From positions 904,578-936,577 of the forward strand of contig JAUIDC010000001.1 of the NCBI GenBank assembly GCA_030429145.1: a stretch of DNA of 32,000 nt, read 5' to 3'. Position 1 is the first letter of the stretch; each line of letters starts with the position of its first letter. This stretch comes from Candidatus Saccharimonadota bacterium (GTDB taxonomy: Bacteria; Patescibacteriota; Gracilibacteria; Absconditabacterales; Absconditicoccaceae). Made by a program: the position numbers and the translations under genes. The notes below the pieces were generated by a model. It was not told where the DNA came from. It ran no database searches and saw only the letters and a list, made by a program, of their open reading frames with translations. This document shows, one piece after another, positions 1 through 32,000 of the stretch.

Positions 1-131
1 TGCAAGAGAGCTTTCGTTCTAGCTTGATCTGGAGTAGAAAGAGCTTTGAACTGATCAGACTGATAGTAGTTGTCCAAACTACCATGTTGATTGATTATAT
101 TCTCTGTCGCCTGTTGGTTTTGATCCACCAT
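1..131 (-). CDS. Hypothetical virion-module protein, N-terminal part only (continues past the window start)
   Basis: ATG at 129-131 (minus), reading MVDQNQQATENIINQHGSLDNYYQSDQFKALSTPDQARTKALL with no stop before position 1. It lies 25 nt downstream of the preceding gene in the same operon. Confidence 0.4.
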   Translation of the reverse strand, partial: MVDQNQQATENIINQHGSLDNYYQSDQFKALSTPDQARTKALL

Positions 132-156
132 AATTGATTTGTATACTATATAAATG

Positions 157-519
157 TTATCTGATCCTTGCTATTCATTTGGCAGTTGGGGTGCTGGAGT
201 ATGTGATTTCTATCGTATCACCGTTTCACAGTAGCATTACCTTGTCAGGGAAGTCCTCAAACGTGCCTGGTACTCTCGATATTCTGAGAGACACTCACGA
301 TCCTCATGTCACAATAATATCAACGGGATATCATAGTGTGTTTTGCCACGTTGCAGGAGATCCAGAGAGCGTCAGTGTAAATACATTTTGTAGCTCCGTA
401 TATTTTGATATTGGAGCAGAGAACACTCCTTCATCCTGTATTGGTTTTAGTTTTGGATGTCTCACATAGGCTTGAGAAAACTCTCATGTCTTATTGTTGA
501 GAGACGGAGTAAGTATCAT
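157..519 (-). CDS. Hypothetical virion protein, 120 aa
   Basis: ATG at 517-519 and TAA at 157-159. Six in-frame TGA codons (for example 484-486) are read as Gly. The product is beta-rich and plausible (MILTPSLNNKTGEFSQAYVRH...). It is co-oriented with the tail genes; the standard-code + ORF 134-469 is its antisense shadow. Confidence 0.5.
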
Positions 520-547
520 ATCAACTTGCTGGCTAGTGCCGAGTGCG

Positions 548-2704
548 TTATTCATTAGGCTTTATAGCATATGAGATATCGATGTCATATATTTCTGGAG
601 ACTCTCCATTGCTTGGATTGAACATTTCTACTATGAGACTGCATTCGTTTCACGATACATTTGCATTTTCTGCTAGTACCGTATGTTTTCTTTGTCGAGA
701 TGCTGTTGTATAATCGCTAGTTGATGGAGCTATTTCTTTTATGAAAAGCTCTATAGTCTTGGATGGTGCAAAGGTGGTCGCTTCAGAGGTGGCAGTTGAT
801 CAGATCCTCACCGTGAAATCGTCGACAACAGATGCGACCGTATACTCATAGATCGGCCTACGGTTAAATCATCTGAACCTGATCACTGATCATGTCTTGA
901 TAAATCATTTGATAGGTGTTTTGAAAACAATGTCGCATGTCGAAGCACCATTCGTCATGCTATAGATCTCAGTATCATTGAGAGACCACCAGAGCTTGAT
1001 TGATCATGGAGTATCTGACCTAGGGATCTTTGCACCGAAGGAGATTTTTTGTGGGATCTTTTCGTGTTGCCATTTTTCAGCTCTAAATGGGTTGAGTTGA
1101 AATCGTCAATAATCGTTGTAGTTATCGTTCGCTTGTGCGAAATAATACTTAATTAGTCTAAATCATAGTTTCCCATTGCCATCGTAGCTATCTGCTGGGA
1201 TGATACCGATATAGAGCACATTACTTTTGATAGCCATACAAGTCACCTGCCCATATGGGAGAGAAATAGGCACATTGAGTGCTATAGGCATGCTAGGTTT
1301 TGCAAATCACAAAGAAAATATCCTATTCATACTATTCTGAGACACACCGCCTCACACATTACCACCGTTTGCCATGTATACCATATCGAGATACTTCACG
1401 ATATTATTTGTGAGATCTGGGTAGAAACCAAATCTATCAGATCCTTCCCTGATAGATGACTCATCGCGAGACCAGCTTCTTATTTCATCCGCATATATAG
1501 GATCGTCACTGTACCCTTGACTCAAGAAAATCTTCCTATACCATTGAGATCAACAAACGACATAGTCGACAGTACCGTCTCACGATATATTGAGTATTTT
1601 CACATCACCATATTTCTTTGAGTGTACTGGGAGTTGAGAGACTCCATCCCAGAAAAACTTTTTACCTCTGTTGTCCTCGTTACCATATACCTGAAAAAGT
1701 GATCAGTTTTTACTGATCCCTCTGATATCAATCGGTAGTGATAGTGTTGCAGAAGTGGTGAAAGCATTGCTTGCTGTCTCAATTCTTCTGATCTGTTTGT
1801 CGACGGCAAGCATCAAAAGGCTACCCTCTTTATGAAATGGAGTGTGATTGTCTGACACACCTGATCGAGTTATTTTCCTTGCAAGTGTTGTATCTGTAAA
1901 TAGGAGACTCGTGAGCTGTCCATTGTAAGAGCTCGATGGTCTAAACTCTATTGTAGGATTTGTCGTAGTGACCAACGCTCAAAACACATAGGTGCGAGCA
2001 TCCGTTCATCAGCTTATTGTACCTATTTTTGTACCACCAACATATACGTCAACTGTACCAGTCGATCCTCAGTTTTCTCTCACTTTCAGTCTAAATATCT
2101 TACCATTTGCAGTACCAACGGCCGTTGAGGTTATCGTCAGATATGCAGTATTTCATGCAGTATGTGTAACATCAAAATTTGTACCCTTTGACCATCATGT
2201 ACCAACGCTATACGTTCCAGCGTTTGTCACATCGACGTATTCGGTACTTCCAATTATTCCTGCATGTGCCTGCCCAGTGTTATACTCCCATGAGTAAACG
2301 CCATGACTAGAAACGATAAATCCATAGTTTCCAATCTTCCCTATATTGAGAATGAAAGCAGGTATTGATACGATGCGTCACGTTGATGTGTCGTACTTAT
2401 ACGTTGTTTCGCTATAGAGAGCCCCACCGTCAGCAACCGATCATCCATATGTCGCTATCATTTGTTCATTATTTCATCCATCGCATTGTGCAACAGGATA
2501 CCCCTCATTGTTGTTCTCGGTGATTTTTATGAAATCATCACCAGCATCACCAATAAGTTTTGATAGCCTTACTCTACCAGACTGAGAAAAAGTATCTATG
2601 TTCTCACCATAGAAATACGAATGCTCCAGAGGCACGTACTTATCGTTTGTGATGCCTCATATGAGAGTCGGGATGTTGTATGGTTGTCTGATATCTCATG
2701 CCAT
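548..2704 (-). CDS. Large tail protein, 718 aa, possibly a nozzle or tail-tubular-B-like or receptor-binding protein
   Basis: I translated it codon by codon. ATG is at 2702-2704 and TAA at 548-550. It has 24 in-frame TGA codons and no in-frame TAA or TAG. The track ORF 1703-1975 is an internal fragment. Its size and position, after an adaptor-like gene downstream of the MCP, match podovirus nozzle proteins. Confidence 0.7.
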
Positions 2705-2708
2705 GGCG

Positions 2709-3395
2709 TTACACTAGGTTGCTGTTATCAGGTCTTTCTCAGTAGGCAGGCTTTGTGCTTCTGATGCTGACCTCATCTAAAAGAGTATCTAGTTTTCTTT
2801 TGAACTCTGCCTCATTGTCATTTTTTTCGTTTATGAGTTGCCTTTCTTTGAACAGATCGCTTGCTACTCATAGTGGCAAAAGAAAGTGCATCTCGTATGG
2901 GAGTCTTATGTCGGCCTCAACGCTTGATGACGATAGAGGCGCTGGCTGTCTTATTCCTTCAAATTTTATACCATTTGTCACAGCAACAGTCGGTGTTGGA
3001 AAGATGAATATACTATCATCTGCTATGATGTAGAAAGGATCATCTTTCGACTGGTTCGTTTTATACCGTAGAATATCAGTGTCTTTGTCCAATTCCTCGA
3101 AACTCCTCTCTGTGCATGGAGTGAAATAGTCATCGGTAGATGCATATTTGATCCCGATGTTTTCGATTTTCCTCTGTCCTGGAGTTGTACCACTCACTCA
3201 CAATATGGTGTACTCGCTTTGATCCAAAACTGAGTCCGCATATCGTCTATCTCGTTGGTAGCTCCTATCTTTCAAGACGATTTCTGAGTATATCAAATCA
3301 CGGACAGCCGAGAGGATGTCGTAACAATCGTCGTCATCAGTGGTATAGTTACCACTTAATCTCCTTGCTCTCGCAATTATCGCACTAGGTAGCAT
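2709..3395 (-). CDS. Putative head-tail adaptor or tail-tubular-A-like protein, 228 aa
   Basis: Track ORFs 3198-3395 and 2868-3197 are contiguous in one frame across TGA 3198-3200. The frame continues through TGA 2868-2870 and 2739-2741 to TAA at 2709-2711. The function is inferred from position only. Confidence 0.6.
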
Positions 3396-3426
3396 ACTTC
3401 CATGAGGTTATCCATAAAATGTATTG

Positions 3427-3453
3427 CTTTGGTTATATGTGCCACAACCAAAG
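3427..3453 (-). terminator. 8-bp stem-loop between the 163-aa gene and the adaptor-like gene (attenuator or stabiliser)
   Basis: CTTTGGTT pairs with AACCAAAG, starting 9 nt after the TAG at 3462. The downstream U-tract is weak. Confidence 0.35.
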
Positions 3454-3461
3454 CTAACATA

Positions 3462-3953
3462 CTATGAGTCCTCTCCCTCTGCATCGTCTTCATCGTCAGA
3501 GTCAGCATCAGCATCCTCATCATCAGAAGCGTCAGGCATTTCTGCGAGAGCCTTATCGACCTTAGTTTTGAGTTTATCAAGACCAGTATTGTGATAGTTC
3601 TTGATACCAAGAGCCTTTGCAGTCTCTCTATATTCCTCCTCAGTCTGAGGGTTCATATTGATGTCCACATTTGCATCATCAGAAGCGTCTTCTGAGTCTG
3701 CATTTGCGTCTTCTGCTGGAGACTCGTCTGGTTTGATCATAGATCTTTCGTGAGTCCATTTATCTCTAGGGACAATAGGATCTCATCCACCAAATCCAGC
3801 ATTGACAGATACTCTCGCACCTTTCTTTTTTGCTACATGGTTGCGATCTACTATTTGATAGTTATCAGGTTTCCCATTTTCTCTGTTCTGCCTGATCCTT
3901 GCGACATCTTCTGTACGCACTTTTCTACCTTCAAACATGATATATTGAGCCAT
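3462..3953 (-). CDS. Acidic hypothetical head-associated protein, 163 aa
   Basis: ATG at 3951-3953 joins in frame to track ORF 3462-3740 across one TGA; the stop is TAG at 3462-3464. It has D/E-rich tails and a helix-extension-helix-like segment (ETAKALGIKNYHNTGLDKLKTKV). Confidence 0.6.
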
Positions 3954-3969
3954 TATAATTCGTATAAGA

Positions 3970-4005
3970 TAAATAAAGAAAAGGAAGGAGGCAAAGCCTC
4001 CGTCC
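3970..4005 (-). terminator. Intrinsic terminator or attenuator directly after the major capsid gene
   Basis: On the minus strand GGAGGC-TTT-GCCTCC (3987-4001) is followed by a T-rich run (TTCCTTTTCTTTATTT). Confidence 0.5.
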
Positions 4006-4011
4006 TATAGA

Positions 4012-4971
4012 CTAGCTACCAGGAGAACCAACCAAAGTGAATGGAAGATTTCTGAGACCATATTTGAATGATCCAGCATATGCCCACTTCCATGAGAGGT
4101 TTTGTGACTCAGTCATCACATCTCCTTGGAGTTGAGGTCTTTCGATGAAGTTCACGAACATTGGGTTCTCAACAGCCAACATATCTGAGTCTGCAACAAA
4201 GAAGTATGCAGTACCACTTGTTAGCCATGGAGTCTCGATGATTGTGTACTCACCAGCGTAGATATTGATATTTCCAACTGAAGTAGCTTGATATTGAGTA
4301 CGAATGTTCTCGATACCAAAGATTTGTTTTGCAAGAGCAGCAGCAGCTCCTCCCTTCTTGACTATGATAGTCTTGAAGTTGAGAGGCATCTCCGCTCCAG
4401 TAGAGTCAACAAATGCTCCTCCGTATGCTTCAACAGCTTTTACAACATCGAGAGAGAGTGCTGATGATGCGAGCTTGTTATCGAATGTTCCATCAGAAGA
4501 ATTCCATAGATGTGCATCATTACATACAGATAGTCCATCTGGAGCTAACACATAAGAACCAGTGAACGCGTCATTGAGGATCTTGTGTGTTTCTTTCTCG
4601 AGAAATGAGTGCATAGCAACGAGTGCACCATTTTTCTGGTTATTTACGATCTCAAGGATCTTCTCAGTGTTGTCTCTTGCCTTCAATCTTGCCTTTTTAG
4701 AGACAGAGATTGTATGACCGAACTCCTCTGAGTCGAAAGTAGATCTGTATCCCTTTCCGATCTTTGACTCTGGTAGATTTTCGTTCTCGTCGAAGTATGT
4801 AGGTTGATCTACTCCTTCGTTAGAGGTGAAAGACTCTGAGTATTCGTCAGTGTCTGCCACATCGAAGATCTTATTCATTGCCGAATTTCTGATTGCTTCC
4901 ATAGTCTGGTTATCGAAGTGTTTTTTCACAGACTTGGCAAAATCAGAGTTAAATTCTTGAATAGTAAGCAT
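4012..4971 (-). CDS. Major capsid protein, HK97-fold type, 319 aa
   Basis: Intact ORF with no in-frame TGA and a TAG stop. It sits after the scaffold and decoration genes and has typical size and composition. The C-terminal region (...AYFFVADSDMLAVENPMFVNFIERPQLQGD...) resembles the Mu-T/P22-like capsid class. Confidence 0.85.
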   Translation of the reverse strand: MLTIQEFNSDFAKSVKKHFDNQTMEAIRNSAMNKIFDVADTDEYSESFTSNEGVDQPTYFDENENLPESKIGKGYRSTFDSEEFGHTISVSKKARLKARDNTEKILEIVNNQKNGALVAMHSFLEKETHKILNDAFTGSYVLAPDGLSVCNDAHLWNSSDGTFDNKLASSALSLDVVKAVEAYGGAFVDSTGAEMPLNFKTIIVKKGGAAAALAKQIFGIENIRTQYQATSVGNINIYAGEYTIIETPWLTSGTAYFFVADSDMLAVENPMFVNFIERPQLQGDVMTESQNLSWKWAYAGSFKYGLRNLPFTLVGSPGS

Positions 4972-5013: not shown

Positions 5014-5442
5014 CTAGTAAATGTGTTTGTTGATTTTCACAACGATGTTTCCTACAGCACCGACGGTAGTACCATGCTTGGTAGTGTCGTATGGGCTGAT
5101 CTTGAATACGTCAGTAGAACTTGCACCAACGTCAATGAGTTGATCTGAACTAGACATAACAATGTCGACCTCAGTTCCTCTTTGAGCTACTGCATAATTT
5201 GCATCACCAGTACCGATGAATTCAGCTTCCTTGTCTGCAATGACAGGGCATTTCGTTTCACCTGCTGGTGCTCCGTCTGGACAGTTTGCAATAGCCGCCG
5301 ATGCAGCTCCTGCCTCTACAGCAAGACCTGATGAAAGGGCTACCATTCTACCAGCGGTAATGACTGTAGCACTACCTTTCGCTAGATATCCAGTGCGGAA
5401 ATGTTCTCCAGCGTTTAGAATTTCAAAGTTTTTTGCTGCCAT
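5014..5442 (-). CDS. Putative head decoration or cement protein, 142 aa
   Basis: Gly/Ala-rich beta protein immediately upstream of the MCP. Its position and size resemble DUF2190-type decoration proteins. No in-frame TGA; TAG stop. Confidence 0.5.
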   Translation of the reverse strand: MAAKNFEILNAGEHFRTGYLAKGSATVITAGRMVALSSGLAVEAGAASAAIANCPDGAPAGETKCPVIADKEAEFIGTGDANYAVAQRGTEVDIVMSSSDQLIDVGASSTDVFKISPYDTTKHGTTVGAVGNIVVKINKHIY

Positions 5443-5469
5443 AATTAAGAATGGATATGGAAATAAATG

Positions 5470-6051
5470 TTATTTTTTGTCCTTATCGGACTTTTTCTCA
5501 GTGAATGGAGACTTACTGAACACTGCGTCTGCTAGTGATTGAGTACCTCATGGAGTTCCATATTGTCCATGGATCTTTGAGATCTTTGTTCTCTCTTTCG
5601 CAGCATATGCAGGGTCTTTCATTTTCCTTCCGTGAGCGACATGGTATGCGTCCTCCAAAGGGATGTTGTGATCTTTGGCAATAGCTTCTGCATCCGCTAG
5701 AAGTTCATCGCCATATCTCTCGACGAGTGATGCTCTCTCCGCAGACTCTTTCTGCTGTTTAGAGACAATTTCTTTGACATCATCCTCCGACATAGCGCCA
5801 GTTTTCTTGAGATCTTGAACTTTGTTGTAGTTTCTTTTTTCTCTACCCTTCATTTTCTCAATTTTCTGATCTTTCTTGTTGAGCTCCGCTTTCAGTTGCT
5901 CTGGAGAGAGATCTTTGTACTTGTCTTCGGCATCAGACGGATCACGGTCTCCACCCTCCCCATCATCATCGTTGTCAAGATCATCATCGTTCTGAGTATT
6001 AAGCTCTTTTTCATCTCCTTCGTCAGGAGTCGTTGTTGTTACTTCTACCAT
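5470..6051 (-). CDS. Putative scaffolding protein, 193 aa
   Basis: Track ORF 5548-6051 extends through TGA 5548-5550 to TAA at 5470-5472. It has an acidic N-terminus and a charged, coiled-coil-like middle, and lies between the portal and capsid genes. Confidence 0.6.
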
Positions 6052-6138
6052 GGTTAATTGAGTTTAAAGGTTAAATGTTTTATGTAGCCTAACCAAGCTA
6101 CGATGGTCTTACTCCATGACTTGCACGGATGCCGTATA

Positions 6139-6489
6139 TTATCAGCCCCTCTGTTGGAGGTTATGATCAGGATTGAGAGTCTTTGCTTCTTGATAATATT
6201 CGAGAGGTTGTTTCTGGATATTTTCGAGGAACGCTATGATATTTCTCAGTTCTTGTACCTCATCCATCGTATTAGCTTTTGTACGTAGATCCTCGTATGC
6301 TTGATTTATTTTCTCCTGCACTAGATCGACAAAGAACATCTTGAAACATGGATTTTCTAGGAAGCTCACGAACACAGTGAAATCGACTTTTGCCTTCTTT
6401 GTCTTTTCATAGAACTCCTCAAAAAGCTGTCAGAAGTATCAGATCATATTCTCTCAGTAGATGAGTTTATTATCGACGGACTTTATCAT
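6139..6489 (-). CDS. Hypothetical head-module protein, 116 aa
   Basis: ATG at 6487-6489 overlaps the portal stop (minus strand reads ATGATAA). Four in-frame TGA codons; TAA at 6139-6141. It contains track ORF 6142-6375. Confidence 0.5.
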
Positions 6490-8486
6490 ACGACCGACTG
6501 TCTAGTAGGTAAATTGTCTGTCTGAGACATGTTGTTTTTTATCATATTTGCTTGTAGCATAGAGGCCGACGCATTAGCAGTAGATCCCATCGCTCAGTTT
6601 CCATACTCTCACGGAGCGACGTTTCCGATCGACATTCATTGCTCTGTGAGTCTTGACTCTATTTCAGAGAGAACCTTCTCTTTGACTTCTGTATTCTTGC
6701 AACTCTGGAAGCAGATATAGTATGTGAACAGATCTATACCAGGCTTGAAAAGATTTTGTGGCATCTCGTCGGAGTTGATCATTCTCTTGTATATCATCGC
6801 TCTCCTCTCATCCGGTAGTAGAGGGTAGCGAGCAAGAATTTCTTCTCTCGGAGTACCATTCAACTTCTCGATCTCTCTGCACATCATGATTTTTGAGATC
6901 TTTGGCACTTCTGGATTGTTGAGGACAATAGGCTCTCTTGCCGTAAGGTAGGCAAGACGTGGTTTTGCATCCTCAAGAGCTTGTTTCCTAGATATCACTT
7001 TGACTTTCGTCTCGAGTCCTTTCTCGATATCTTCTCTATTGATCTCGAGCTCTGCACCGATGAGTCAGTTTCCAAAATTGGTATATTTCTTCTCGGTATC
7101 AGACATGTACTCCAGCAGACTTCTCAGCCATATGATACGCCAGAAATCTTCTTCTCCGAAACCGATGATCTGTGCATCGAGTCTGAACATGAGGTTTGAG
7201 TTGACTTGCTGTTGCTTAGCTTCTCAGAGAGTCTGGTTTGGTCAGAAAGGCAATCACCTATTAGCAGCCGAGTATCATGTTTCCGACTGTATCTCACGAT
7301 CGAGCCTGTCAATCATGTTAGTAGTATTGCTATCTCACTTGTCTGCATCGAGAATATGGATGGCCTGACTGAGAGATTTCCCATCTTTTGTCCTGGCAGG
7401 AACGATCACAGGTCAGTTCTGGTTTCTATCTTTCAATAGATCGCTATTTGGGATGAGATCCATGTCAGCAAGGATATGACGGAAACCTGCGTTCTGTTCT
7501 TCTTTTATGATCAACAAGTTCATGAGCTTGTTCTTCGCATCTTGGCCTCCGATGGCAAGTTCTGCGAGTCACATACCAGTAGGATCTGCATACAATGGGA
7601 AAAGGTTTGTGTATACAACTGGGAAAGGTACTTTGAGAGGATTTTTCTTTTCCGCCTCAGTGAGAGGGACGATTTCATTGAGTCTATGGACTGTTTTGAA
7701 ACCAAAGCTGACAGTGACTTGGTATTTTCTACCTCTGAACACCTTGAACCACTCGATCAAATTGACCTCTTTATCATCTGCAACAGTCATATTGAGTGAG
7801 CGTTGCATATCGCTCTCCTTCGTGATTTCATCACAAATACCTTCTGGTATCGCATCAACGCCATAATAGACTGGAGGTTTCCCTTCATTTTCCGCTTGTG
7901 CATTGATAGCCTTCAATCTTGCTTTTGTGATCCTTGTAGAGACTCACGTATAGTCATAATCGTTGAAGCGCGTTGTCTTCTGCATGTATACAAACTTTGG
8001 ATTGATAGTATCAAAGATCGGCTCTTTGATATATTCATCCCATCACATTTTGATGCGGGCAGAGACACCATAGAAACCGACGTCTCGCACATGTTGAAAA
8101 TCCTTTCTATGTTTATCCATCAAGACTTGAGAACGCTCTGCCATCTTCTGGAGTCTGTATGCGTAATCATCAAACCAAAAGTCTGTGCCATCGAACTCAA
8201 CGCCGAGATCCGCCTCGAAATAGTTTGAACAATGAGCTTTCATATGTTGATGCAGGACGTGCAATTTCACTAGATCATTCTCGGCAACCTTTGGATTGGT
8301 ATATTTCTTCTCGTAGGTGATCCAGTCTTTCTTTTTGTCACGCATAAAATCCTGTGCGTCGAGGAATTCTTCTTTGATCTCGTCAAGAAGCTCCTTTTCA
8401 AGTTTCTCGTCTGCCTTGATCTGCTCGATCGTGATAACCTCACGAATTCTTTTTGATCTCTCAACGGGGGTACTGATCACCTGCAT
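6483..8486 (-). CDS. Portal protein, 667 aa
   Basis: Track ORFs 8043-8486, 7569-7916 and 6636-6998 share one frame. I translated all the gaps: 14 in-frame TGA codons and no in-frame TAA or TAG, with TAA at 6483-6485. Its size and its position after terL fit a portal. Confidence 0.8.
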
Positions 8487-8590: not shown

Positions 8591-10255
8591 CTACTCGTCT
8601 AGTTCGTCCTCATCTATCTCCATAATCGATGATTTGTACTTCTTTTTGAGTTTTTCTTTATAGCTACCAGGCGTGAAAGGTTTCTCCTCTTTCACACGAG
8701 TCATCCACTGCCCTTGTCATCACTCTGGCATTGTTCTCACCTTGCTCTCCTCTTTGAAGCCTTGGCAACAGATTGCATCGGCCATCACAACGTCGTCGTG
8801 ACAATCTTCTTCTGCTTGAGGCTTTTTATTTCTCACCACAAACGTATACATCTGATCGATAAGTTCTTGATCTGCATCGATCGTCCCGTTTTTTATCATC
8901 TCTTTGTGCTCATCCAGCATCATTGGCCTAGTGACAGAGTTTGTATCCCGACCGATCTTGTCATATACTTTGTCTGAGTCTTTTTTCTGTTTCATCTGGT
9001 ACGTGATGATATCCCCATACCGAGAATAATCCTTTGAAGCATACAAAAATGTGTGTCAATGATTGTTTCTCTCCGGTAGTATTGTTCATGTGATGCCTTG
9101 CTTGTAAACATGATCAACAACATCACACATTTCTTTTCACGGCTCTCTATTCCCCTGATACGAACAGATCAACTCTCATTTTCTATTTCTGACTCTCATC
9201 ACACTCTCATCTCCGTGATCTAATCACTCGGCAAAGTCCAGCCCAAATACTGCATCTGCCTCTGGAGTCCTGATATATCGGATAAGTCATTCGATTTCCT
9301 CATCCTTTTCTCAGACGATAGGCAAAATAGATCTCACGACCTCCAATGGATAGAAAGGCTTACCAGAGAAAATGAACGCATCGCCAGGCTCACTTGGGTA
9401 TTCTTGCAACGTACCTTGCGGATCATCCTTGTATTTTGCTATATATCGTTTCAGCTTTCTATCTGACAGCTTGAGTCTTTTCTTGAGGTGCTCAAGTTCT
9501 TTTGGCAACGACACTTTCTCGCCAGGCAAAAGATCAGACTCGTAATCGTCACTTGTCCACCATGGCACAAAAGTCGTAGCAAATTGTGATCAGATCTTCT
9601 CGTGATTGTTCTGCCACAGAGCATGGAACTCATTCATACCATTCGCAGTTGTCTCCATTGTAAGGTTTGAAAATTCGAGTGCAGGCAGTGCACCTCTGAG
9701 TATCTCTTTGAGTTTCTTGTAGAAAGCGACCTCGGTGAAGTGCGCATCGGTAGGAGATCCAGATCTCGCGTCGAGTGTGATCTTGATCCTTGAGTTCATT
9801 GATGGAAAGTAGTACTCACGTTTGTTGTCGTACTTTGGTATAGGTTTTCTCCATTTACCATTTTTTGTGACAATCACATCGGGGATGCGCTCATACATAA
9901 GTTTGAGCCTCTGGAAAATTTCTTCTGCTTTCTCCCTATCGTGAGCGACGATAATAGCATTAGTATCTCTATAGAAAAGACACTTATCGAGTTTTTCAGC
10001 AAGTTTGTACGTCGTAAATCATATCTGTCTGGCCTTGAGGATAATATGCCATACCTTTCCGTACTTCTCTTTGAGAGTTTTCTCTTTGAAATATAATGCA
10101 CATTGCTCTTTGTTGAGCCTCATCCTCACGAGCTTTTTACTTCTCAGATCTTGGATATGATAGAGGTGGTTCAATCTTCGGAACTTGTTCAAAAGTTTAG
10201 GCTTCGCCTTTTTGAGCAACTCATTCTTTGTGCCTCTATGCTTAGGTACGACCAT
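8591..10255 (-). CDS. terL: Terminase large subunit, 554 aa
   Basis: Track ORFs 10019-10255, 9590-9898, 9311-9568 and 8720-9046 are in one frame and join across 11 TGA codons; TAG is at 8591-8593. The ATPase region reads ILKARQIGFTTY, with that Gly encoded by TGA at 10019-10021. Nuclease-domain motifs are GLDFAEGLDHGDESV and HDDVVMADAI. Confidence 0.85.
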
Positions 10256-23406: not shown

Positions 23407-23448
23407 AAATCCACTTGCAATTATCAATGAATGGTATATTATGAGATT

Positions 23449-23475
23449 GTTCCCCGCAGAGGGAACGCTTTTTTA
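23449..23475 (+). terminator. Intrinsic terminator, either ending the pilin transcript or acting as an attenuator in the nusA leader
   Basis: GTTCCC-CGCAGA-GGGAAC followed by GCTTTTTT. It lies downstream of a TTGCAA-N16-TATTAT promoter (23415-23442) and 57 nt upstream of the nusA ATG. Confidence 0.5.
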
Positions 23476-23531
23476 AACTAGGACATGTAAAAAAATAATT
23501 TTGTACTTTTAACTTCTTAATCATAGAGAGA

Positions 23532-24566
23532 ATGCAATTAGATGGAAAGACCATTCAGGCCTCAATCATGCAGTTGATTGAAGATTACAAATTTGACCCA
23601 TATCAGGTAATGGAAATTGTAAAACTTGGTTTGAAGTCTGCATTTAAAAAAGATTATCTGCCAAATGAGAAAAAAGCACAAGTACAGGTAACGATTGATA
23701 AAGCGGGTAATATCCGTGTCTTTAGAGAGTATGAGGTAGTAAAAGAAGTTGAAGATGACAGTTTTGAGATGTCAGTAACTGATGCAAAGAAACACAGAAA
23801 GGACATCAAAGAAGGAGAGACTGTACTCATGGACATCACTCCAGAGAAGCTTGAGTTTTCACGTATCGCAGTACAGGCTGCAGCCCAGACTATTAAGCAA
23901 TCTTTGAAAGGAATCGAAAGAGAAAGATTTTATGAGAAATTTCAAAATAAGCAGGGAGAGCTTCTGAGAGCAAAAGTACTGAGAGTCAACGGCGACAGTA
24001 TCGTACTTGATGTTGACGGAACAACTGTAGTACTTGGTCCTGAGGGTCAGATACCCGGAAGACTCTACCATCCAGGTGAAGAGATTTTTGTACTTCTTAG
24101 ACAGATCTCAAAGGGAACTGGTGGAATTATCTTGGATATTACTCAGTCAAGCAATGACTTTATTGAAGCAATCCTGAGAAAGATTGTTCCAGAACTTGAT
24201 GAAGGAAAAGTTGAAATTACAAGAATTGCAAGAGTACCAGGAAAGAGAACAAAGATGGTTGTTGCTGCATTAGATGATAAAATAGACCCAGTGGGTGTGT
24301 TTGTTGGTCAGCGTGCAGAAAGAATCAATACTATCTTGACGCTTCTCGATGGTGAAAAGATCGACTTCATCGAACAGATTGAAGATGATGACATCAAACT
24401 GATAGCCGACTGCTTGAAGCCTGCTCGCATTGAGTCTATTGAGCTTAAAGGAAAGAAAGCTATCGTGACACTACCTGACGATCAGAAACCTCTTGCTATC
24501 GGAAAAGCAGCCTCTAATATCAAGCTAGCTGGACAGCTCACAGGCTATATGATCGAACTACGTTAA
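23532..24566 (+). CDS. nusA: Transcription termination/antitermination factor NusA, 344 aa
   Basis: Intact ORF with no TGA. It shows the NusA layout of an N-terminal domain, an S1-like segment (GELLRAKVLRVNGDSIVLDV) and KH-like segments (VPGKRTKMVVAALDDKIDPVGVFVGQRAERI). Confidence 0.88.
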   Translation: MQLDGKTIQASIMQLIEDYKFDPYQVMEIVKLGLKSAFKKDYLPNEKKAQVQVTIDKAGNIRVFREYEVVKEVEDDSFEMSVTDAKKHRKDIKEGETVLMDITPEKLEFSRIAVQAAAQTIKQSLKGIERERFYEKFQNKQGELLRAKVLRVNGDSIVLDVDGTTVVLGPEGQIPGRLYHPGEEIFVLLRQISKGTGGIILDITQSSNDFIEAILRKIVPELDEGKVEITRIARVPGKRTKMVVAALDDKIDPVGVFVGQRAERINTILTLLDGEKIDFIEQIEDDDIKLIADCLKPARIESIELKGKKAIVTLPDDQKPLAIGKAASNIKLAGQLTGYMIELR

Positions 24567-24595
24567 TCTCATATTTTAACTTATAAGTCATTGAT

Positions 24596-25252
24596 ATGCC
24601 TTCAGATATTCTCTGATATATACTACTCGGAATAGTACTGATAGTGTCTATTGGCATTCATGAATTTGCTCATGCGCGAGCAGCAAATAAGCTCGGAGAC
24701 CCTACTCCCCGCCTACAGTGAAGACTCACACCAAATCCGTTAGCTCATATTGATCCTATAGGATTTATCATGATATTTATCATCGGATTTGGTTGGGGAA
24801 AGCCAGTGTATACCAATCCTGGGTACTTCCGCAATCCAGTCAGAGATGACTTTCTCGTTGCTATGGCGGGGCCAGCGAGCAACATCCTTATGTGTATCGC
24901 TGGTATGATTATCATGGGTGTGTACGCTCTCGTGATTGGGATTAGCTCCCCATTGGAAATTTATGCGACCAATGATATTGTTATTCAGTTTTGGATATTA
25001 TTTTGTCAGTTAAATATTGTGCTGGCTGTGTTCAATTTGATCCCTATTTTTCCACTCGATGGATATAGAATTATCAAAATTATCTCGCCTAGCGCAGGAT
25101 ATTGGATGGAAAAAAACGGGCACATCATGACTATTGTCGCACTCGTACTGATCCTTGGTGTAGGAAGAAACTTTATTGGCAATTATATTTTTGGAGCAAC
25201 GGAGACGATTTTCAATTTCCTCTTTATGATCATGAGTCAGGTGTTCTTCTAA
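24596..25252 (+). CDS. Site-2-protease-family (M50) zinc metalloprotease, 218 aa
   Basis: ATG at 24596 joins track ORF 24770-25252 in frame. HEFAH zinc motif and FNLIPIFPLDG motif are present. The segment GDPTPRLQ-G-RLTPNPLAHIDP has its Gly encoded by TGA 24719-24721. Two in-frame TGA codons in total. Confidence 0.8.
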
Positions 25253-25326
25253 AGAATATAAAATGTATAAAATTATCACATTAAAAATATTTGATTTTAA
25301 GAACTTTATACACTTTTGATTTTACC

Positions 25327-26400
25327 ATGCTCGATAAGCTCTTGCAGATAGAACAAACCTATAAGGACATACAGGAACAGTTGATGGATCCTGATAATTT
25401 GTCGAATCAGGAAAAACTCATTGGTCTCAATAGAAAGTCTCAGAGCTTACAGGAGGCATATGATCTGTTTCAAAACTATAAAAAATATACTGCACAGAAG
25501 AAGGAGGCTGAAGAGATACTTGGTCAAGAAAGTGATAAAGATATGATAGAGATGGCTGAGGACCAGCTGCATGATGCGAATGAAAAGATCGAAGAACTTG
25601 AAGGCAAGCTGAAGATAGCGCTGCTGCCGAAAGACCCCAATGACGACAAGAATATTTTCCTCGAAATCAGACCGGCAGCAGGTGGCGATGAAGCCGGCCT
25701 TTTTGCAGCTGAACTGCTCAAAGCATATATGCTCTTTGCTCAGAAAAAAGGCCGAAAGAGCGAAGTGATCGAACAGGTATACAATGATGTCGGAGGCATC
25801 AAATTTGCTATGATTAAAATGTCGGGCGATCACGTCTACAGCCAGATGAAATTTGAATCTGGGGTGCATCGTGTACAAAGAATTCCTGCGACAGAGTCGC
25901 AGGGTCGTGTACACACATCGACTATTACCGTTGCTATCATGCCAGAAGCCGAAGATGTTGAATTTCACATTGATCCAAATGATGTACAGATGGACACCTA
26001 TGCTGCATCCTCAGCCGGTGGTCAAAATGCTAATAAAAACCAAACGGGTGTAAGACTCCACCATCTCCCAACAGGAATGATTGTTACCATCGGAGACAGT
26101 AAATCACAAATGCAAAATAAAGAAAAGGCTCGACAAGTACTAAAAGCAAGACTCTATCAAGCTGAACTTGATAAGAAAAATGAAGAAGAACGTGAAGCAA
26201 GAGGCGCTCAGATTGGAGGTGGAGACAGAAGTGAAAAGATAAGAACCTACAACTTTCCGCAAGACCGTGTAACTGATCATAGGATCAAAGAGTCACGAGG
26301 AAATCTCCCAGGCATCATGCTTGGTGAACTCGATGATATCATCTCAGCACTCATCCTCTACAATCAAACAGAGATGATGAAAGCAGAAAAGGAAGAGTAA
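25327..26400 (+). CDS. prfA: Peptide chain release factor 1 (recognises UAA/UAG), 357 aa
   Basis: PAT tripeptide (RIPATES) and GGQ motif (SSAGGQNANKNQTGVRL) are present. No in-frame TGA. The probable start is the ATG at 25327, inside track ORF 25291-26400. Confidence 0.92.
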   Translation: MLDKLLQIEQTYKDIQEQLMDPDNLSNQEKLIGLNRKSQSLQEAYDLFQNYKKYTAQKKEAEEILGQESDKDMIEMAEDQLHDANEKIEELEGKLKIALLPKDPNDDKNIFLEIRPAAGGDEAGLFAAELLKAYMLFAQKKGRKSEVIEQVYNDVGGIKFAMIKMSGDHVYSQMKFESGVHRVQRIPATESQGRVHTSTITVAIMPEAEDVEFHIDPNDVQMDTYAASSAGGQNANKNQTGVRLHHLPTGMIVTIGDSKSQMQNKEKARQVLKARLYQAELDKKNEEEREARGAQIGGGDRSEKIRTYNFPQDRVTDHRIKESRGNLPGIMLGELDDIISALILYNQTEMMKAEKEE

Positions 26401-26506
26401 GTCGATTAGTATTGAAAATAGATCCAGATTTTCTATAATCACGGGCACAGGTAAACGTTCTCTATATATCATTCCGCTCTTCTCATGTGCGGATCATGCA
26501 GATCAG

Positions 26507-26540
26507 TCCCGGTATACTCCGGGGCTTTTTCTTTTCTTGC
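26507..26540 (+). terminator. Intrinsic terminator after prfA
   Basis: CCCGG-TATACT-CCGGG followed by GCTTTTTCTTTTC. Confidence 0.55.
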
Positions 26541-26602
26541 AACCTCCTTTCAAATCACTACAAGTAGGAGGTATTCATTTTTGTATTAGCATAAACGCAT
26601 AG

Positions 26603-27847
26603 ATGTTTGTTATCAAGAAATCTGAGAAACTCAACGGAACAGTTACCATATCATGAAGTAAAAACGCAGCACTGCCTATTATCGCAGCGAACTACCTGAC
26701 AGATAATACAGTCACGCTGGATAATGTTCCTGACATCCTCGATGTCACACGTTTACATAATATCGCGGAAAATGCGGTCAAAGCATCTGAATGAAAGGAC
26801 TACTTTGACCTTACCGATCCTCTTTGCCTCAAACTAAGAGCATCGATCCTTATGGTACCATATGGACTTATTCACCATGGTGAAGTACGTTTTATCGGTG
26901 TCGGTGGATGTAAACTTGGTAAAAGATCTCTCGACACATTCGATGATGGTCTAGAACAGTGTGGTGTCTCACTCAGCTATGAAAAAAACACTAAAATCTA
27001 TAAAAAAACTTCTCTCCCGAAGGACAAGATTGTTCTCCAAGAGTTCAGCGTAACGGCAACGGAGGCTATACTTACCTATCTTGCATTTCTCTCAGATGCA
27101 CAAGGTAACGAGTACACTCTCTATCAGGCAGCTATTGAGCCACATGTACTCAATCTTATTGATTTCCTTAAAAACATTGGTGCTGATATCGAAGTAAACT
27201 ACAATCATAGCATCACTATCAGACCTCAACAGGTACAGGTCAAAGAAAACACATTTCATATCACCGGAGACTACTTAGAAGCTGGTATGTTTTTGGCTAT
27301 TGGAGCAACAGCAAAGGACAGTGATATCACTATCACGTGAGTGGACATCAAAGACTTGTTATCTGTCTTTGCTGTGTGCAAAAACATCGGCATCGACTAC
27401 TCTATCATCGATCATCAAACATTTCGTGTCACGAGCAAAAACCTAGATAAGTATCATGCAACAAAGATTCAAACGATGATCTTTCCAGGATTTCCAACCG
27501 ATTTACAATCCGTGTTTGCAACGCTCCTCACACAAGCAACTGGCGTGAGTAAGATCTTTGAGACATTATTCGAAGGAAGATTCGTCTATCTAGCAGAATT
27601 AGAAAATCTCTGAGCAAAGGTAGAGATACTCAATCCACACCAAGTGGTTGTTATTGGCCCTACACAGCTTCATGGAAACTATGTGACGAGCACTGATATC
27701 AGAGGTGGAGGCGCTATGATCGTCGCTGGTGTTATTGCAGAGGGAGAAACTGTTGTGACCAATGAAGAACTCATCCTCAGAGGCTATGAAAACGTCGTAG
27801 AAAAATTACAATCTATCGGTGTACAGATTGAGAGAAGAGATAGTTAA
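26603..27847 (+). CDS. murA: UDP-N-acetylglucosamine 1-carboxyvinyltransferase, 414 aa
   Basis: Three track ORFs (26852-27340, 27341-27613, 27644-27847) and the segment from ATG 26603 are in one frame, joined by four TGA codons. TGA 26654-26656 encodes the Gly of TIS-G-SKNAALPI. The active-site Cys context reads VGGCKLGKRSLD. The ELENL-G-AKVE Gly is TGA 27611-27613. Confidence 0.9.
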
Positions 27848-27870
27848 TTTAATTAGTCATATTACTTTCT

Positions 27871-29070
27871 ATGTACCAACCTTCAGATCAAGTATTGAAG
27901 AAATATGCTGACGTACTAGTAAAATATGCTGCTAACAACGGGAAGGGAGTACAGCCAGGTGAAACAGTGTGTTTACAAGTCAATGAGTCTGCTAAGCCAT
28001 TGCTCAAATATCTCTTACTTGCAGTCATCGAGGCAGGTGGGTTACCTTTTATTGACTATAATCCAGAGGGTGTATATAAGACACTCTTCGACCACGGGAC
28101 AGAAGAACAGTATACTTATGTACCAAAAAACATGACACTCGGGAAGGTGTCCGATATGAATCATCTCATCTACATACGTTCTGAAGCAGACAAACATGAA
28201 TATGACGAAGTAGACTCAGCTAAATTGATTGCAGATCAGAGATCATATAAATTTTACTATGATGCTTGGCAAGAAAAAGAAAGGCAAGGAAAATTCTCAT
28301 GGTGTCTCGCGTTATTTGGTACAGAAAGTATGGCTCAAGAAGCTAACATGTCACTGGAAGAATATCGACAAGAGATCATAAAAGCCTGTTTTCTAGATAT
28401 GGATGATCCTGTAGCAAAGTGGAAAGAAGTAGAAGAGGAAATCAGTGATATTAAAAACAAACTGAATGAACTGCCTATAGAATCAGTACATATCGTAGGA
28501 GAAGATGCTGATCTTACAGTCAAAATAGGAACTAATAGAAAATGGCTCAGCGGCGGCGGTCATAACATCCCTTCATTCGAAATATTTATATCTCCTGATC
28601 GAAGATGAACAGAGGGATGGATCAGATTTTCTGAACCACTCTACCAGTATGGTAGTATCATTAAAGGTATAGAATTACATTTTAAAAATGGTATCATCTC
28701 TCAAGCAACAGCTAAAGAAAATGAGAAAGCATTACTGGATATGATTGCTGCGGAAAATGCAAATAAGGTCTGAGAGTTTAGTCTAACGGATCGCAGAATG
28801 TCTCGTATCACTAAATTTATGAGCGACACTCTTTTTGATGAGAATGTTTGATGACCATGTGGGAATACGCATATTGCTATAGGATTTGCTTATAAGGAGA
28901 GCTATAAGTGAGATGTCTCCTCTCTCTCCGCAGAAGATTGGGGGAATCTAGGATTCAATGAATCTGCTGTCCATAGCGATATTGTTTCAACTACCAATAG
29001 AACCGTTACAGCTACCCTTGCTGACGGTACAGAAAAAGTTATTTATAAAGATGGAGAATTTGTCATATAA
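27871..29070 (+). CDS. M29-family aminopeptidase (AmpS/PepS-like), 399 aa
   Basis: The N-terminus is typical of M29 (KYADVLVKYAANNGKGVQPGETVCLQV). It continues past TGA 28606 through four more TGA codons, including the tandem TGA-TGA at 28849-28854 in FDENV-GG-PCGNTHIAIG. TAA at 29068-29070. Confidence 0.85.
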
Positions 29071-29075
29071 CAAAC

Positions 29076-30215
29076 ATGCTAGCACTACTCCGCAAACTAT
29101 TTGCGCCTAAATTACATAGTCTCAATACTATCCATATCGATAGGAAAGCGATCCTGCATAATTTGTCGTATCTTCAATCGTTACATCCATTTGATCAGAT
29201 TATTCCTGTGCTAAAATCGAATGCGTATGGACATGGACTGAAAGAGGTTTGCCAGATACTGAAGCATAGCGACGTGGAAATGGTCGCTGTTGATAGCTTC
29301 CCAGAATATCAGATTGCCAAAAAATATACGAAAAAGAGGGTGCTGGTGATTGGAGAGACCGATGTACGTAACTATAGACATTTCAATCGAAAACGCGCAT
29401 CATTTGCTGTGTACAATATCAGCACCCTCGAGTGACTCATCGCATATAGAAAAAAATGTCGTATCCATATCTTTTTGAATACAGGAATGAATCGTGAAGG
29501 CATCCAAATGCACGAGTTAGATGAGTTCCTAGAGACACTGCAAAATGCACCTTGGATAACGGTCGAGTGAATCATGTCTCACTTTGCCGATGCTGATAAT
29601 GTTGACCCTGCATCTATGCAATTACAAGTAGAAAATTTTAAACGCATGCATGAAAAGATACTTGAGTATGGGTTTGAGTCGCAGTATAGACATATAAGTG
29701 CAAGTGCTGGTGCGTTAAAGTTAGATGATGATTTTTTCAATGCACAAAGAGTATGATTGGCACTCTACGGCTACAATCCTTTGTCAGAAGATGACAAAGC
29801 ATACACAAAGGGGTCTCTGTTGAAGCCTGCTATGCGCGTCTACTCCTCTATCGTTTCACTCCAAGATATCAGTGAGTGAGAGTGAGTTGGCTACAAGTTC
29901 ACCTATGAGGCACCTGGAGAGACACGTATTGCGACGATACCATTTGGCTACTTTGAGGGACTACCAAGAGTACTTTCCAATAACTGGCAGATCAAACGAA
30001 AAGATATCTATCTCCCCGTAGTCGGCACGATCTCTATGAATCTCTGCTGTGTCAACGCATCAGAATACGATGTAGCCATAGGAGAAACTGTCGAGGTAAT
30101 TTCACCAAGCAAATCTTCATTAAACTCACTTGAGCATATGGCAAAAGCTTCTGGAATGATTACCTACGAGCTTCTCGTAAAGATAGCTCCTAGCGTGAAA
30201 AGAAAGGTGATATAA
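29076..30215 (+). CDS. alr: Alanine racemase, 379 aa
   Basis: The PLP-lysine motif VLKSNAYGHG is present. The segment WITVE-G-IMSHFADAD has its Gly encoded by TGA 29568-29570, and RV-G-LALYGY is also present. Five in-frame TGA codons; TAA at 30213-30215. Confidence 0.88.
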
Positions 30216-30280
30216 TAGTTTGATTGATTTTTTACAGGAACCAAATAGTATTGTTTACTAATTTATATTGTTAGATATCG

Positions 30281-31423
30281 ATGAAGACAAGTCACATTAT
30301 TACACTCAATATATTCATTACCCTGCTACTGCTGGGAGGATTTTACTATGCGATCAACACCTACGGAACACAATTTCTTACGGGCGCATGGGACAAAAAT
30401 GGTGTCACAAAAGTGATCAACCAAAAAGTGATCCAAGAAAATGTGAACGAGTATAGAAGACTCTCAGACCTTGAAAGTGATTTGACGAAGGCTATAGAAA
30501 CAGCCTCGTCTTCAGTGATGCACATAGCAAAAAGTGACAATCTCACTTTGGGATCAGGAGGCTATGTTACTCGTATGCAAGCTGATGGAACGGCAGTTGT
30601 TGCCACTTCTGACGGCTATTTGATCACCAATAAGCATGTCGTGAGTGACCTCAAAGAGACATATAGTGCAGTAAGTACAGAGGGGAAACATTTTGCTGTT
30701 GATAAGATCTGGCTCGACCCAGTATTGGACTTTGCTGTGATCAAGCTGGTCCATGACACAGGAAGCGCCGTTAATGATCTTTCTGCTGCTGCCTTCGTAA
30801 GCACAGAAAGCAAACTCAGCCTTGGTCAATTCGCCACAGCCCTCGGCAGCAGCCAAACCTCACCTGAACTCATTCAGAAAAATGGTACTATTAGCCAGAA
30901 AAACATAGCTTTTACTGTGTTGACTGGAGACAGCTCAATTAATCTGCCTTACTTCAGCATCGATACAACTGTTCATGCAGGCTTTAGCGGAGGACCAACC
31001 ATTGACCTCGTCGGTAACGTTATCGGTATAACAACAGCTTCACAGCAGGGAGGTCAGCAATGAGCGCTGATTTTGCCAGTGACAAAAGAGTTTATCCAAG
31101 AAACACTTAGTAACATCGTACAGTACGGCAAAATCAGCAGACCAACGTTCGGTGCAACTCTTACTCCACTCAATACCTATCGCGCAGAAACGATGGGACT
31201 TAAGAAGTTCAATGGTCGATATGTCCAAAAAGTTGCTAGTGGCAGTAATGCATGAAGAGCTTGACTCCTCACTCAAGACATTATCACTCAAGTCAACGGT
31301 AAAGAGATACCATCTGCTGCACCATTTGCTCCTTACCGGCTCAGCTACTGATCTGGTGACACTATAGAGATCACCGTGCAACGCGAGAATAATACAAAAA
31401 AACTTTCACTCACTGTCCAATAG
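30281..31423 (+). CDS. htrA: HtrA/DegP-family serine protease with a PDZ domain, 380 aa
   Basis: N-terminal TM. Catalytic triad contexts are TNKHVV, DFAVIKL and GFSGGPT. The PDZ-like C-terminus (GRYVQKVASGSNA-G-RA-G-LLTQDIITQVNGKEI) is reached through four TGA codons. TAG at 31421-31423. Confidence 0.85.
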
Positions 31424-31440
31424 AATAATCTCATCACAAT

Positions 31441-31470
31441 AAAAAAGCCTGCTGAATAAGCAGGTTTTTC
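31441..31470. terminator. Bidirectional intrinsic terminator between the convergent htrA and ftsX genes
   Basis: AAAAAAG-CCTGC-TGAATAA-GCAGG-TTTTTC: an A-run on one side and a T-run on the other. Confidence 0.6.
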
Positions 31471-31492
31471 TCTATAACGTTTTTTTTAATCT

Positions 31493-32000
31493 CTATATTT
31501 TTCTAATCATCTGAGTCAGTACTTTATCACTGATAACAGTAGCAACAGCCCCAATAAGCACAAACTCCAGAAGCAAGATAGCAGTAATATTTTGCCATCC
31601 AATAGCATCGGCATATGTCGCCAACGATGAATGGAAAAGGTATGCAAACGAGCCTCCTACATAGTGAGCTATGATAGCCACGATTACTCCTGTCAGCACA
31701 AATGAGATAAGAAGTATAAGCACGACGCTTATCAAAAATGGCATCTTAATCGTCATATAGTTCGCTCCAAGCAATTTCTCTACTTCAATATTTTTCCAAA
31801 ACTGTCTACATTTCATCGTAATGATAAGAAGCAAGAACGTTACGATCATCGCACAGACCACACCTACAAGTACCAGTGAAAATGCCATAGAGAAATTGGT
31901 CACATTGATGATATTTGCTATCCTCTCTTGCTGTTGTGCAAAGCCTCCTCTTGTTTGGATACTCTCCGCATTACGGATCACTCCCGTATAGTTGTCTACG
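31493..32000 (-). CDS. ftsX: Cell division permease FtsX, C-terminal part (N-terminus lies beyond the window end)
   Basis: The FtsX signature EVEKLLGANYMTIKMPFLI is flanked by TM helices. The frame is open to position 32000. TAG at 31493-31495. Confidence 0.75.
   Translation of the reverse strand, partial: VDNYTGVIRNAESIQTRGGFAQQQERIANIINVTNFSMAFSLVLVGVVCAMIVTFLLLIITMKCRQFWKNIEVEKLLGANYMTIKMPFLISVVLILLISFVLTGVIVAIIAHYVGGSFAYLFHSSLATYADAIGWQNITAILLLEFVLIGAVATVISDKVLTQMIRKI

Follow-up and report, generated by a model that had tools for sequence, protein, structure and literature searches.

An Absconditabacteria locus and its phage-derived region in which UGA very probably encodes glycine and CGA and CGG tryptophan

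Here, we describe the genetic code of a 32,000-nucleotide stretch of DNA, hereafter the window, from contig JAUIDC010000001.1 of the GenBank assembly GCA_030429145.1 (positions 904,578 to 936,577). It is very probable that the window joins DNA of an Absconditabacterium (SR1) to a phage-derived region on its left, and that both parts are written in a code in which UGA specifies glycine, CGA and CGG specify tryptophan, and translation stops at UAA and UAG only. A preliminary description of the window had assigned it to NCBI translation table 25, in which UGA is glycine and every other codon keeps its standard meaning. The glycine assignment holds. The arginine assignment of CGA and CGG does not, and because these codons behave as tryptophan codons table 25 is incomplete for the window. 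The same description had treated the window as uniformly cellular. This has to be revised, since about 40% of it is phage-derived, although this part follows the same code.

The reassignment of UGA to glycine has been known since 2013 and is laid down in NCBI table 25 for SR1 and Gracilibacteria (Campbell 2013 and Rinke 2013, as cited in PMC8629427; what we take from that paper refers throughout to the sections of it on which we draw). In 2021 Codetta predicted both UGA to glycine and CGA/CGG to tryptophan for Absconditabacteria (Shulgina & Eddy 2021, eLife, PMC8629427). Prophages of Absconditabacteria and Gracilibacteria that are dense in in-frame TGA were described in 2023 (mBio, PMC10746230), where code 25 was scored against code 11 only and CGA is not mentioned. 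In its code the window is thus typical of a lineage already known to be recoded. It offers no new kind of code, and its value lies in an independent confirmation, at the level of one locus and including a phage-derived region, of a CGA/CGG prediction that was purely computational. Beyond those papers it adds modestly: the change from arginine to tryptophan is obeyed by phage-derived genes, a tryptophan stands at a conserved arginine position of the terminase large subunit (TerL), TGA use in the phage genes is twice that of the host genes, and public protein databases contain, for this clade, systematic errors of tryptophan for glycine and of arginine for tryptophan.

UGA as a glycine codon

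Stop-to-stop open reading frames (ORFs) were chosen greedily and without overlap, for each code in turn. Under table 11 the window holds 109 ORFs of at least 60 amino acids (aa), mostly short, and the greedy choice yields 68 pieces that cover 80% of the sequence at a mean length of 128 aa. With TGA as a sense codon 32 ORFs cover 94% at a mean of 316 aa. Opening TAG or TAA instead gave no comparable gain (means of 149 and 145 aa). After curation of these 32 the gene set comprised 25 genes. About ten ORFs were rejected as shadow or wrong-frame, on the plus strand 3393-4010, 5198-5830, 5831-6067, 10296-10688, 10817-11188, 12150-12926, 12927-13370 and 31490-31999, and on the minus strand 11375-11923 and 22777-23256.

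The curated genes contain 129 in-frame TGA codons, spread over 20 of the 25, whereas TAA and TAG never occur in frame. The stop codon is TAA in 17 of the genes, TAG in 8 and TGA in none, in agreement with what had been claimed for the rejoined genes, and each of the 32 ORFs that terminates within the window likewise does so at TAA or TAG. We also checked the nine TGA positions that had been quoted for MurA, the peptide deformylase (Def), alanine racemase (Alr), the M50 protease, the tandem in the M29 aminopeptidase and TerL, and each of them is an in-frame TGA. Pfam models run across the TGA codons in MurA (2-417 of 417), M29 (2-406 of 406), Def (5-149 of 156) and both Alr domains, and Pfam matches were likewise obtained for NusA, release factor 1 (RF1), M50, FKBP, GDSL and HtrA. 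The fragmented ORF track under table 11 is an artefact of the genetic code, because UGA is a sense codon in the code of the window.

The identity of the encoded residue can be read from homologues that use the standard code. In solved structures glycine stands opposite two of the four TGA codons of MurA, namely 26654-26656 (IS-G-xKNA) and 27611-27613 (L-G-A) in the PDB alignments shown; the other two lie at variable sites. All five PDB homologues of Def have glycine at the motif columns 11716-11718 (GxGLAAPQ) and 11578-11580 (EGCLS), and a further TGA, 11560-11562, lies just downstream of the latter. Alr carries TGA at 29433, 29568, 29754, 29877 and 29883, of which 29568, 29754 and 29877 are glycine in three of three distinct PDB sequences and 29883 in two of three. 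The five TGA codons of M29 are 28606, 28771, 28849, 28852 and 28909. The one at 28771 is glycine in solved structures and in 89/89 members of a comparison set of 89 homologues of normal composition. For TerL the set consists of 43 distant homologues of normal composition (e.g. a Paenibacillus 'DNA packaging protein'), in which the columns of TGA 10019-10021 (the Walker A glycine), 9224-9226 and 9056-9058 are glycine in 43/43, 40/40 and 33/36 cases. The Walker A segment of T4 gp17, SRQLGKTT, aligns with ARQIxFTT of the window and places a glycine opposite TGA 10019. The tandem TGA of M29 (28849-28854) had been taken for a conserved GG. This is borne out in the wider family, with glycine in 76/86 homologues at 28849 and in 48, next to 41 gaps, at 28852, but not in three PDB structures, which have alanine or a gap there. 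The mismatch with the solved structures is a subfamily difference, as the alignment of 89 homologues shows.

Log-odds were calculated as a simple Codetta-style sum over usable homologue columns. For TGA (13 columns) glycine reached +11.7, serine was next best at -8.4 and tryptophan stood at -14.0, and every other codon with at least nine columns, CGA and CGG apart, returned its standard meaning. A further line of evidence comes from codon exchange, for which the window was aligned at codon level with about 25 loci of Absconditabacteria retrieved by way of their RF1. The 330 TGA codons of these loci stand opposite GGN of the window in 219 cases, opposite TGA in 28 and opposite TGG in none, while TGA codons of the window meet TGA (28) and GGN (37) in the relatives. 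With TGA counted in, glycine makes up 7.0-7.2% of codons; tryptophan would make up 1.8-3.0% if TGA were tryptophan. Homologue columns, log-odds and exchange of TGA with GGN agree on UGA as a glycine sense codon, as had been proposed.

A reading in which the window uses the standard code and the interruptions are pseudogenes, sequencing errors, programmed read-through or selenocysteine at UGA would account for the fragmentation of genes under table 11. It is exceedingly improbable in view of 129 in-frame TGA against zero in-frame TAA or TAG in 25 genes, the concentration of TGA on glycine columns, the exchange of TGA with GGN between orthologues over more than 20 related genomes, and the identical sequence found in an independently assembled contig (L001, described below).

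The Mycoplasma-type code (table 4), in which UGA is tryptophan, is harder to separate by gene structure, as ORF boundaries do not differ between tables 4 and 25, nor does coding density. Moreover, tryptophan stands at TGA positions in P0001, the copy of this TerL in the database, and in many homologues. These tryptophans are translation artefacts, however. Two related TerL proteins, P0002 and P0015 (encoded at L082:9200-10729 and L084:10001-11488), differ from their own DNA only where TGA has been read as tryptophan (8 and 17 codons), and the TerL entries that bear these residues consist of 4-6% tryptophan and 0.4-2% glycine. The homologue sets used here were cleared of such artefacts by composition only. 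Standard-code homologues have glycine at the TGA columns, tryptophan is the residue with a log-odds of -14.0, and TGA of the relatives is aligned with TGG of the window in 0 of 330 cases. TGG remains a tryptophan codon in the window, and the earlier rejection of a Mycoplasma-type code is well founded; we regard table 4 as barely credible for this DNA. The window shares with table 4 organisms (Mycoplasmatales, Entomoplasmatales and some insect endosymbionts) a UGA that is a sense codon and the resulting ORF boundaries, but its UGA is glycine and not tryptophan. P0001 has tryptophan at every TGA, and at least part of the public protein entries for this genome and its phage relatives have been translated with table 4. 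Among clade homologues of the M50 protease the column of TGA 24719-24721 reads glycine in 70 and tryptophan in 43.

CGA and CGG as tryptophan codons

The curated genes contain 37 CGA and 8 CGG codons. In 129 aligned pairs CGA of the window is matched by TGG (43), CGA (28), TTT (20), TAT (16) and CGG (5) among its ten commonest partners, from which arginine and lysine codons are absent. In the reverse direction TGG of the window meets TGG (46), CGA (30) and CGG (4), and CGG has CGA, TGG or CGG as its partner in 7/9 cases. The codons CGT, CGC, AGA and AGG exchange with one another and with lysine codons, and CGA and CGG lie outside their ten commonest partners. Where proteins of the relatives show 'R' in columns with TGG in the window, as they often do, the codon is CGA or CGG.

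Homologues in the standard code point in the same direction. RF1 has CGA at 25753-25755, 26131-26133 and 26296-26298. The first of these is the conserved 'GW' position and is tryptophan in 19/24 standard-code homologues, the second is methionine or leucine and the third leucine or threonine; arginine occurs at none of them, and at codon level the relatives have TGG, CGA or TTT. In TerL the column of CGA 9446-9448 is tryptophan in 39/41 homologues and that of CGG 8948-8950 has tryptophan in 29, phenylalanine in 9 and tyrosine in 4. In M29 the CGA at 28366 faces tryptophan in 35 and glutamate in 17 homologues, and the CGA at 28600 faces a tie of 29 each. Other CGA/CGG sites are hydrophobic or variable, and arginine is absent among the residues listed. 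In the M50 clade homologues, CGA 24677-24679 corresponds to tyrosine in 54, tryptophan in 26 and arginine in 14. Summed as log-odds, CGA (8 columns) gives +17.7 for tryptophan and -8.4 for arginine, and CGG (2 columns) gives +4.7 and -2.2. Codon usage fits this picture. No TGG occurs in RF1, NusA or MurA, although the 'GW' position of RF1 holds a CGA. Tryptophan accounts for 0.79% of codons, and for about 1.2-1.3% once CGA and CGG are included, and the true arginine codons (AGA, AGG, CGT and CGC) number 331, 194 of which are AGA. Thus, as judged from alignments and codon counts, CGA behaves as a tryptophan codon in the window, and the evidence on CGG, thin but consistent, suggests the same.

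Plain table 25, with CGA and CGG kept as arginine, is a rival of this reading, and we consider it very unlikely. The glycine half of it is fully supported, and a few CGA codons do stand opposite arginine or lysine in some homologues when aligned by eye (Def 11764, Alr codon 105). It does not explain why CGA swaps with TGG, TTT and TAT while arginine and lysine codons are missing from its commonest partners, or why the other four arginine codons do not exchange with CGA and CGG among theirs. It also conflicts with CGA/CGG on near-invariant tryptophan columns in RF1, TerL and M29, with the log-odds for CGA, and with the lack of TGG in RF1, NusA and MurA, where the 'GW' position of RF1 is CGA. 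Compared with table 25 as defined by NCBI, the window has the same glycine UGA, the same restriction of stops to UAA and UAG and an RF1 gene, and it contradicts the retention of CGA and CGG as arginine. Compared with the code of Shulgina & Eddy, it yields all three reassignments independently, with AGA as main arginine codon, CGA more frequent than CGG, and TGG as tryptophan. It differs in that clades with reassigned CGA/CGG have a GC content of 0.26-0.38 and CGA below 37 per 10,000 codons (PMC8629427), whereas the window, a small sample of 32 kb and not a genome, lies at or slightly above these ranges with a GC content of 0.40 (range 0.37-0.43) and 41 CGA per 10,000 codons, next to 9 CGG. A low GC content and scarce CGN codons, with AGA as main arginine codon, go along with that code but do not define it.

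How such a code would be decoded can be outlined from published work on the clade (PMC8629427) rather than from features visible in the window. UGA would be read by a tRNA-Gly(UCA), and release factor 2 would have been lost. CGA and CGG would be read together by tRNA(UCG) and tRNA(CCG) that have acquired tryptophan identity, with G73 and without A20. Bacteria of the CPR (candidate phyla radiation) lack the inosine tRNA-Arg(ACG), and in them a tRNA-Arg(GCG) serves CGU and CGC (PMC8629427). Termination at UAA and UAG would be carried out with RF1, the gene of which is present in the window and encodes the PAT and GGQ motifs.

Several observations weigh against the decoding that we propose. The 32-kb window contains no tRNA gene and no Rfam match, and tRNA scans, which also took in 28 genomic loci from relatives and 4 phage loci, returned no tRNA(UCA), tRNA(UCG) or tRNA(CCG). 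The GC content of 0.40 is slightly over the range given for reassigned clades. RF1 and M50, with 20-27 loci each, dominate the codon-pair counts, and these are phylogenetically non-independent. Support for CGG is thin, with two columns of standard-code homologues and about 15 aligned pairs. Some CGA sites are uninformative or look like arginine sites when aligned by eye: CGA 11764 of Def is opposite arginine in the Leptospira and Plasmodium deformylases, and codon 105 of Alr is opposite lysine, glutamate or glutamine. Finally, some TGA columns are not glycine in standard-code homologues, such as TerL codons 405 (alanine in 35/38) and 388 (aspartate), Def codon 63 (valine or isoleucine) and M29 28606 (serine in 33, glycine in 23, and arginine in three PDB chains). 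These are ordinary substitutions, yet they lend the glycine assignment no support.

The result is of practical importance because each gene call in the window hinges on the translation table. Table 4 places tryptophan at 129 glycine positions, Walker A and catalytic motifs included, and table 25 places arginine at about 45 tryptophan positions. The invariant tryptophan in GWGKP of the M50 protease, encoded by TGG at 24794-24796 in the window (FGWGKP), is stored as arginine in 52/117 clade homologues (tryptophan in 65), and Absconditabacterales proteins translated by NCBI with table 25 (e.g. HMY80483.1, P0037) have arginine at columns with TGG in the window. The comparison of the DNA of the window with that of its relatives implies that these arginines are probably misread CGA or CGG, and annotations made with table 25 would then carry arginine-for-tryptophan errors. 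For Absconditabacteria and their phages, mistranslations of either kind impair homology searches, family profiles and the prediction of structures.

The host block and its lineage

The source of the window had been sought in the SR1/Gracilibacteria group of the CPR, and the nearest relatives of its RF1 are indeed Absconditabacteria/SR1 genomes. RF1 is 80% identical to that of a Patescibacteria metagenome-assembled genome (MAG; L002), 57-69% identical to that of many SR1, Absconditabacteria and Absconditabacterales genomes, including human oral taxon HOT-345 (about 25 MAGs fall in the range of 57-80%), and at most 45% identical to RF1 of other phyla. The gene order from 13,882 to MurA is common to the window and L002, in which the orthologues of this block are 62-80% identical and in the same order. 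We assign the source to Absconditabacteria (SR1) from RF1 identity and gene order.

A second assembly covers the right part of the window. The Logan contig ERR3428547_116342 (L001, 33.4 kb) is an independent assembly that is identical over 22,963-32,000 (100% at protein level) and runs on past the window into the genes of ribosomal proteins L1 and L11. It starts about 570 nucleotides upstream of nusA, inside an intergenic region of 720 bp (22,777-23,531). Its genes have been called under table 11 as fragments, with MurA, for example, split into pieces of 162 and 67 aa.

The block opens with two plus-strand genes at 13882-15045 and 15046-16419 (388 and 458 aa), membrane proteins or proteins without a functional match, and a minus-strand gene at 16423-18651 (743 aa); none of the three has a Pfam match. 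Orthologues of all three were found only in the closest relatives, L002 (67-80% identity) and L080 (23-43%), and the proteins appear to be lineage-specific. Three minus-strand genes follow: an FKBP isomerase (18736-19302, Pfam FKBP_C), a further member of the block (19367-19846) and a large GDSL-domain surface protein of 934 aa (19900-22704, Pfam Lipase_GDSL_2) with 18 TGA and 7 CGA/CGG codons. The last is of a secreted or surface type, with the GDSL lipase/acylhydrolase domain in its centre. No match to this gene was found in any related locus, including L002, where its neighbours keep their order, and it may be a strain-specific insertion.

The plus-strand genes that follow supplied much of the evidence given above. 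They encode NusA (23532-24566, Pfam NusA_N and KH_5, with an identical protein on ERR3428547_116342), which is devoid of TGA as well as TGG, the M50 site-2 protease (24596-25252, Pfam Peptidase_M50), RF1 (prfA, 25327-26400, Pfam PCRF and RF-1), likewise devoid of both codons, MurA (26603-27847, Pfam EPSP_synthase), the M29 aminopeptidase (27871-29070, Pfam Peptidase_M29) and alanine racemase (29076-30215). An HtrA/DegP-type serine protease with a PDZ domain (30281-31423, plus strand, Pfam Trypsin_2 and PDZ_2) has 4 TGA, 1 CGA and 1 CGG. The block ends with the C-terminal part of a membrane protein on the minus strand (31493-31999) that is FtsX-like by eye and runs off the window; the same gene is found on L001.

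The phage-derived region

The left part of the window, up to about position 13,313, is phage-derived. All genes of this region are on the minus strand. TerS, TerL, the capsid candidate and the deformylase match Pfam or PHROG families, and the portal was assigned by position and size only. One of the genes encodes TerL (8591-10300, phrog_2, E=8e-21), and its columns show that the phage genes follow both recodings. Related TerL genes are found on phage-like contigs of 39-45 kb with the order TerS-TerL-portal-capsid, and in Absconditabacterales MAGs at NCBI. A scan of IMG/VR with a TerL peptide pattern detected no relative, and tblastn of the capsid candidate against INPHARED phages gave no match.

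The junction between phage and host lies between 13,313 and 13,882, where synteny with L002 sets in. The interval 13,314-13,881 holds a small ORF for a very basic, lysine-rich protein (13351-13590, plus strand, 79 aa) and about 290 nucleotides of non-coding DNA, and repeat and profile searches detected in it no tRNA, Rfam match, integrase or att-like repeat. The region most likely represents a prophage, or what remains of one. The TerL entry P0001 is recorded on a contig of 936,577 bp, which favours integration.

The left 13 kb might instead not be integrated, the window being either an assembly chimera of phage and host or, as a whole, part of a large phage with host-like genes. A single junction can be seen, phage DNA continues past the left end of the window and neither an integrase nor an att repeat was found, which also weighs against the overall composition that we propose for the window. 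The Logan contig begins at about 22,963, short of the junction, and no more than about 3 kb separate TerS from the junction, with no replication or lysogeny module among them. Non-integration is nonetheless unlikely. Besides the 936,577-bp contig on which TerL is recorded, synteny with L002 holds to the right of 13,882, the housekeeping genes are typical of a chromosome (NusA, RF1, MurA and Alr, with L1 and L11 beyond the window on L001), and prophages integrated in genomes of the clade have been described (PMC10746230). With those prophages the region shares terminase, probable portal and capsid genes and a high density of TGA in a genome with a code of type 25; it differs in that only one prophage end and no integrase are seen in the window.

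The two parts of the window differ in how often they use TGA. The phage genes (157-11868) contain 74 TGA in 3,419 codons, and TGA accounts for 30% of their glycine codons versus 14% in the host genes (13882-31999; Fisher P=2.7e-6). The capsid candidate has no TGA among 22 glycine codons (P=0.0004 versus the 30% share of phage genes), the adjacent head gene has 0/15 and the scaffold-like gene 1/12, and in the host block NusA and RF1 have 0/24 each. This suggests that TGA is avoided in highly expressed genes. The doubled share in the phage genes and its avoidance in capsid and scaffold could reflect selection on expression or host range.

One position of TerL might preserve a trace of the second reassignment. 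Codon 84 is TGG (10049-10051), and 33/43 standard-code terminases have arginine there, in the motif V-R-x-I-I-L-K-A-R-Q-x-G, seven residues upstream of the Walker A arginine. In the related phage contigs L082 and L084 the codon is TGG too, and other recoded relatives have tryptophan or 'R'. We tentatively suggest, as a possibility with the odds against it, that the phage lineage shared with L082 and L084, its relatives of 39-45 kb, adopted both codon changes together with its hosts and that this TGG is a fossil of the change from arginine to tryptophan. An ancestral CGA or CGG arginine codon would have been re-read as tryptophan and later fixed as TGG. If the tryptophan did arise in this way, the phages would therefore have been tied to Absconditabacteria hosts already at the time of reassignment, and phage/host pairs could be used to date it and to discriminate between codon capture and an ambiguous intermediate.

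Next to TerL lies the gene of the small terminase subunit, TerS (10255-10728, Pfam Terminase_2 E=1.2e-7, phrog_51 E=7e-13; 3 TGA, 1 CGA). Directly downstream of TerL is the probable portal (6483-8486, 667 aa, 14 TGA), at the same place as a gene of 620-678 aa in L082 and L084. It has no Pfam or PHROG match and is 19% identical to the L084 gene (E=1.8e-15). There follow a scaffold-like acidic protein (5470-6051) with a weak match to the head scaffolding family phrog_4866 (E=0.005), a head-module gene (5014-5442) and the candidate for the major capsid protein (4012-4971, 319 aa), which matches phrog_4523, 'major head and protease protein' (E=3.8e-5). The genes at 2709-3407 (3 TGA, 2 CGA, 1 CGG), 548-2713 (721 aa, 24 TGA, 3 CGA) and 157-561 (6 TGA) possibly encode tail or distal structural proteins; the stretch 157-3407 gave no Pfam or PHROG match, and 2907-3269 weakly matches an ORF of L084. 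The last recognisable phage gene before the junction is at 12834-13313 (phrog_717, E=3.4e-6). The L084 contig, itself recoded at TGA, carries genes for tRNA-Tyr(GTA) and tRNA-Trp(CCA) at 5470-5631, and L085 has the same pair.

The deformylase gene (11404-11868, Pfam Pep_deformylase E=2.6e-32, phrog_2890 E=1.9e-26), an auxiliary gene of a phage with a CPR host, adjoins the packaging genes. Its best match among solved structures is the deformylase of cyanophage S-SSM7 (PDB 3uwa). Like the phage deformylases it is short, has the three catalytic motifs and stands beside packaging genes; unlike them it belongs with a CPR bacterial host and contains seven UGA glycine codons, two of which lie in catalytic motifs.

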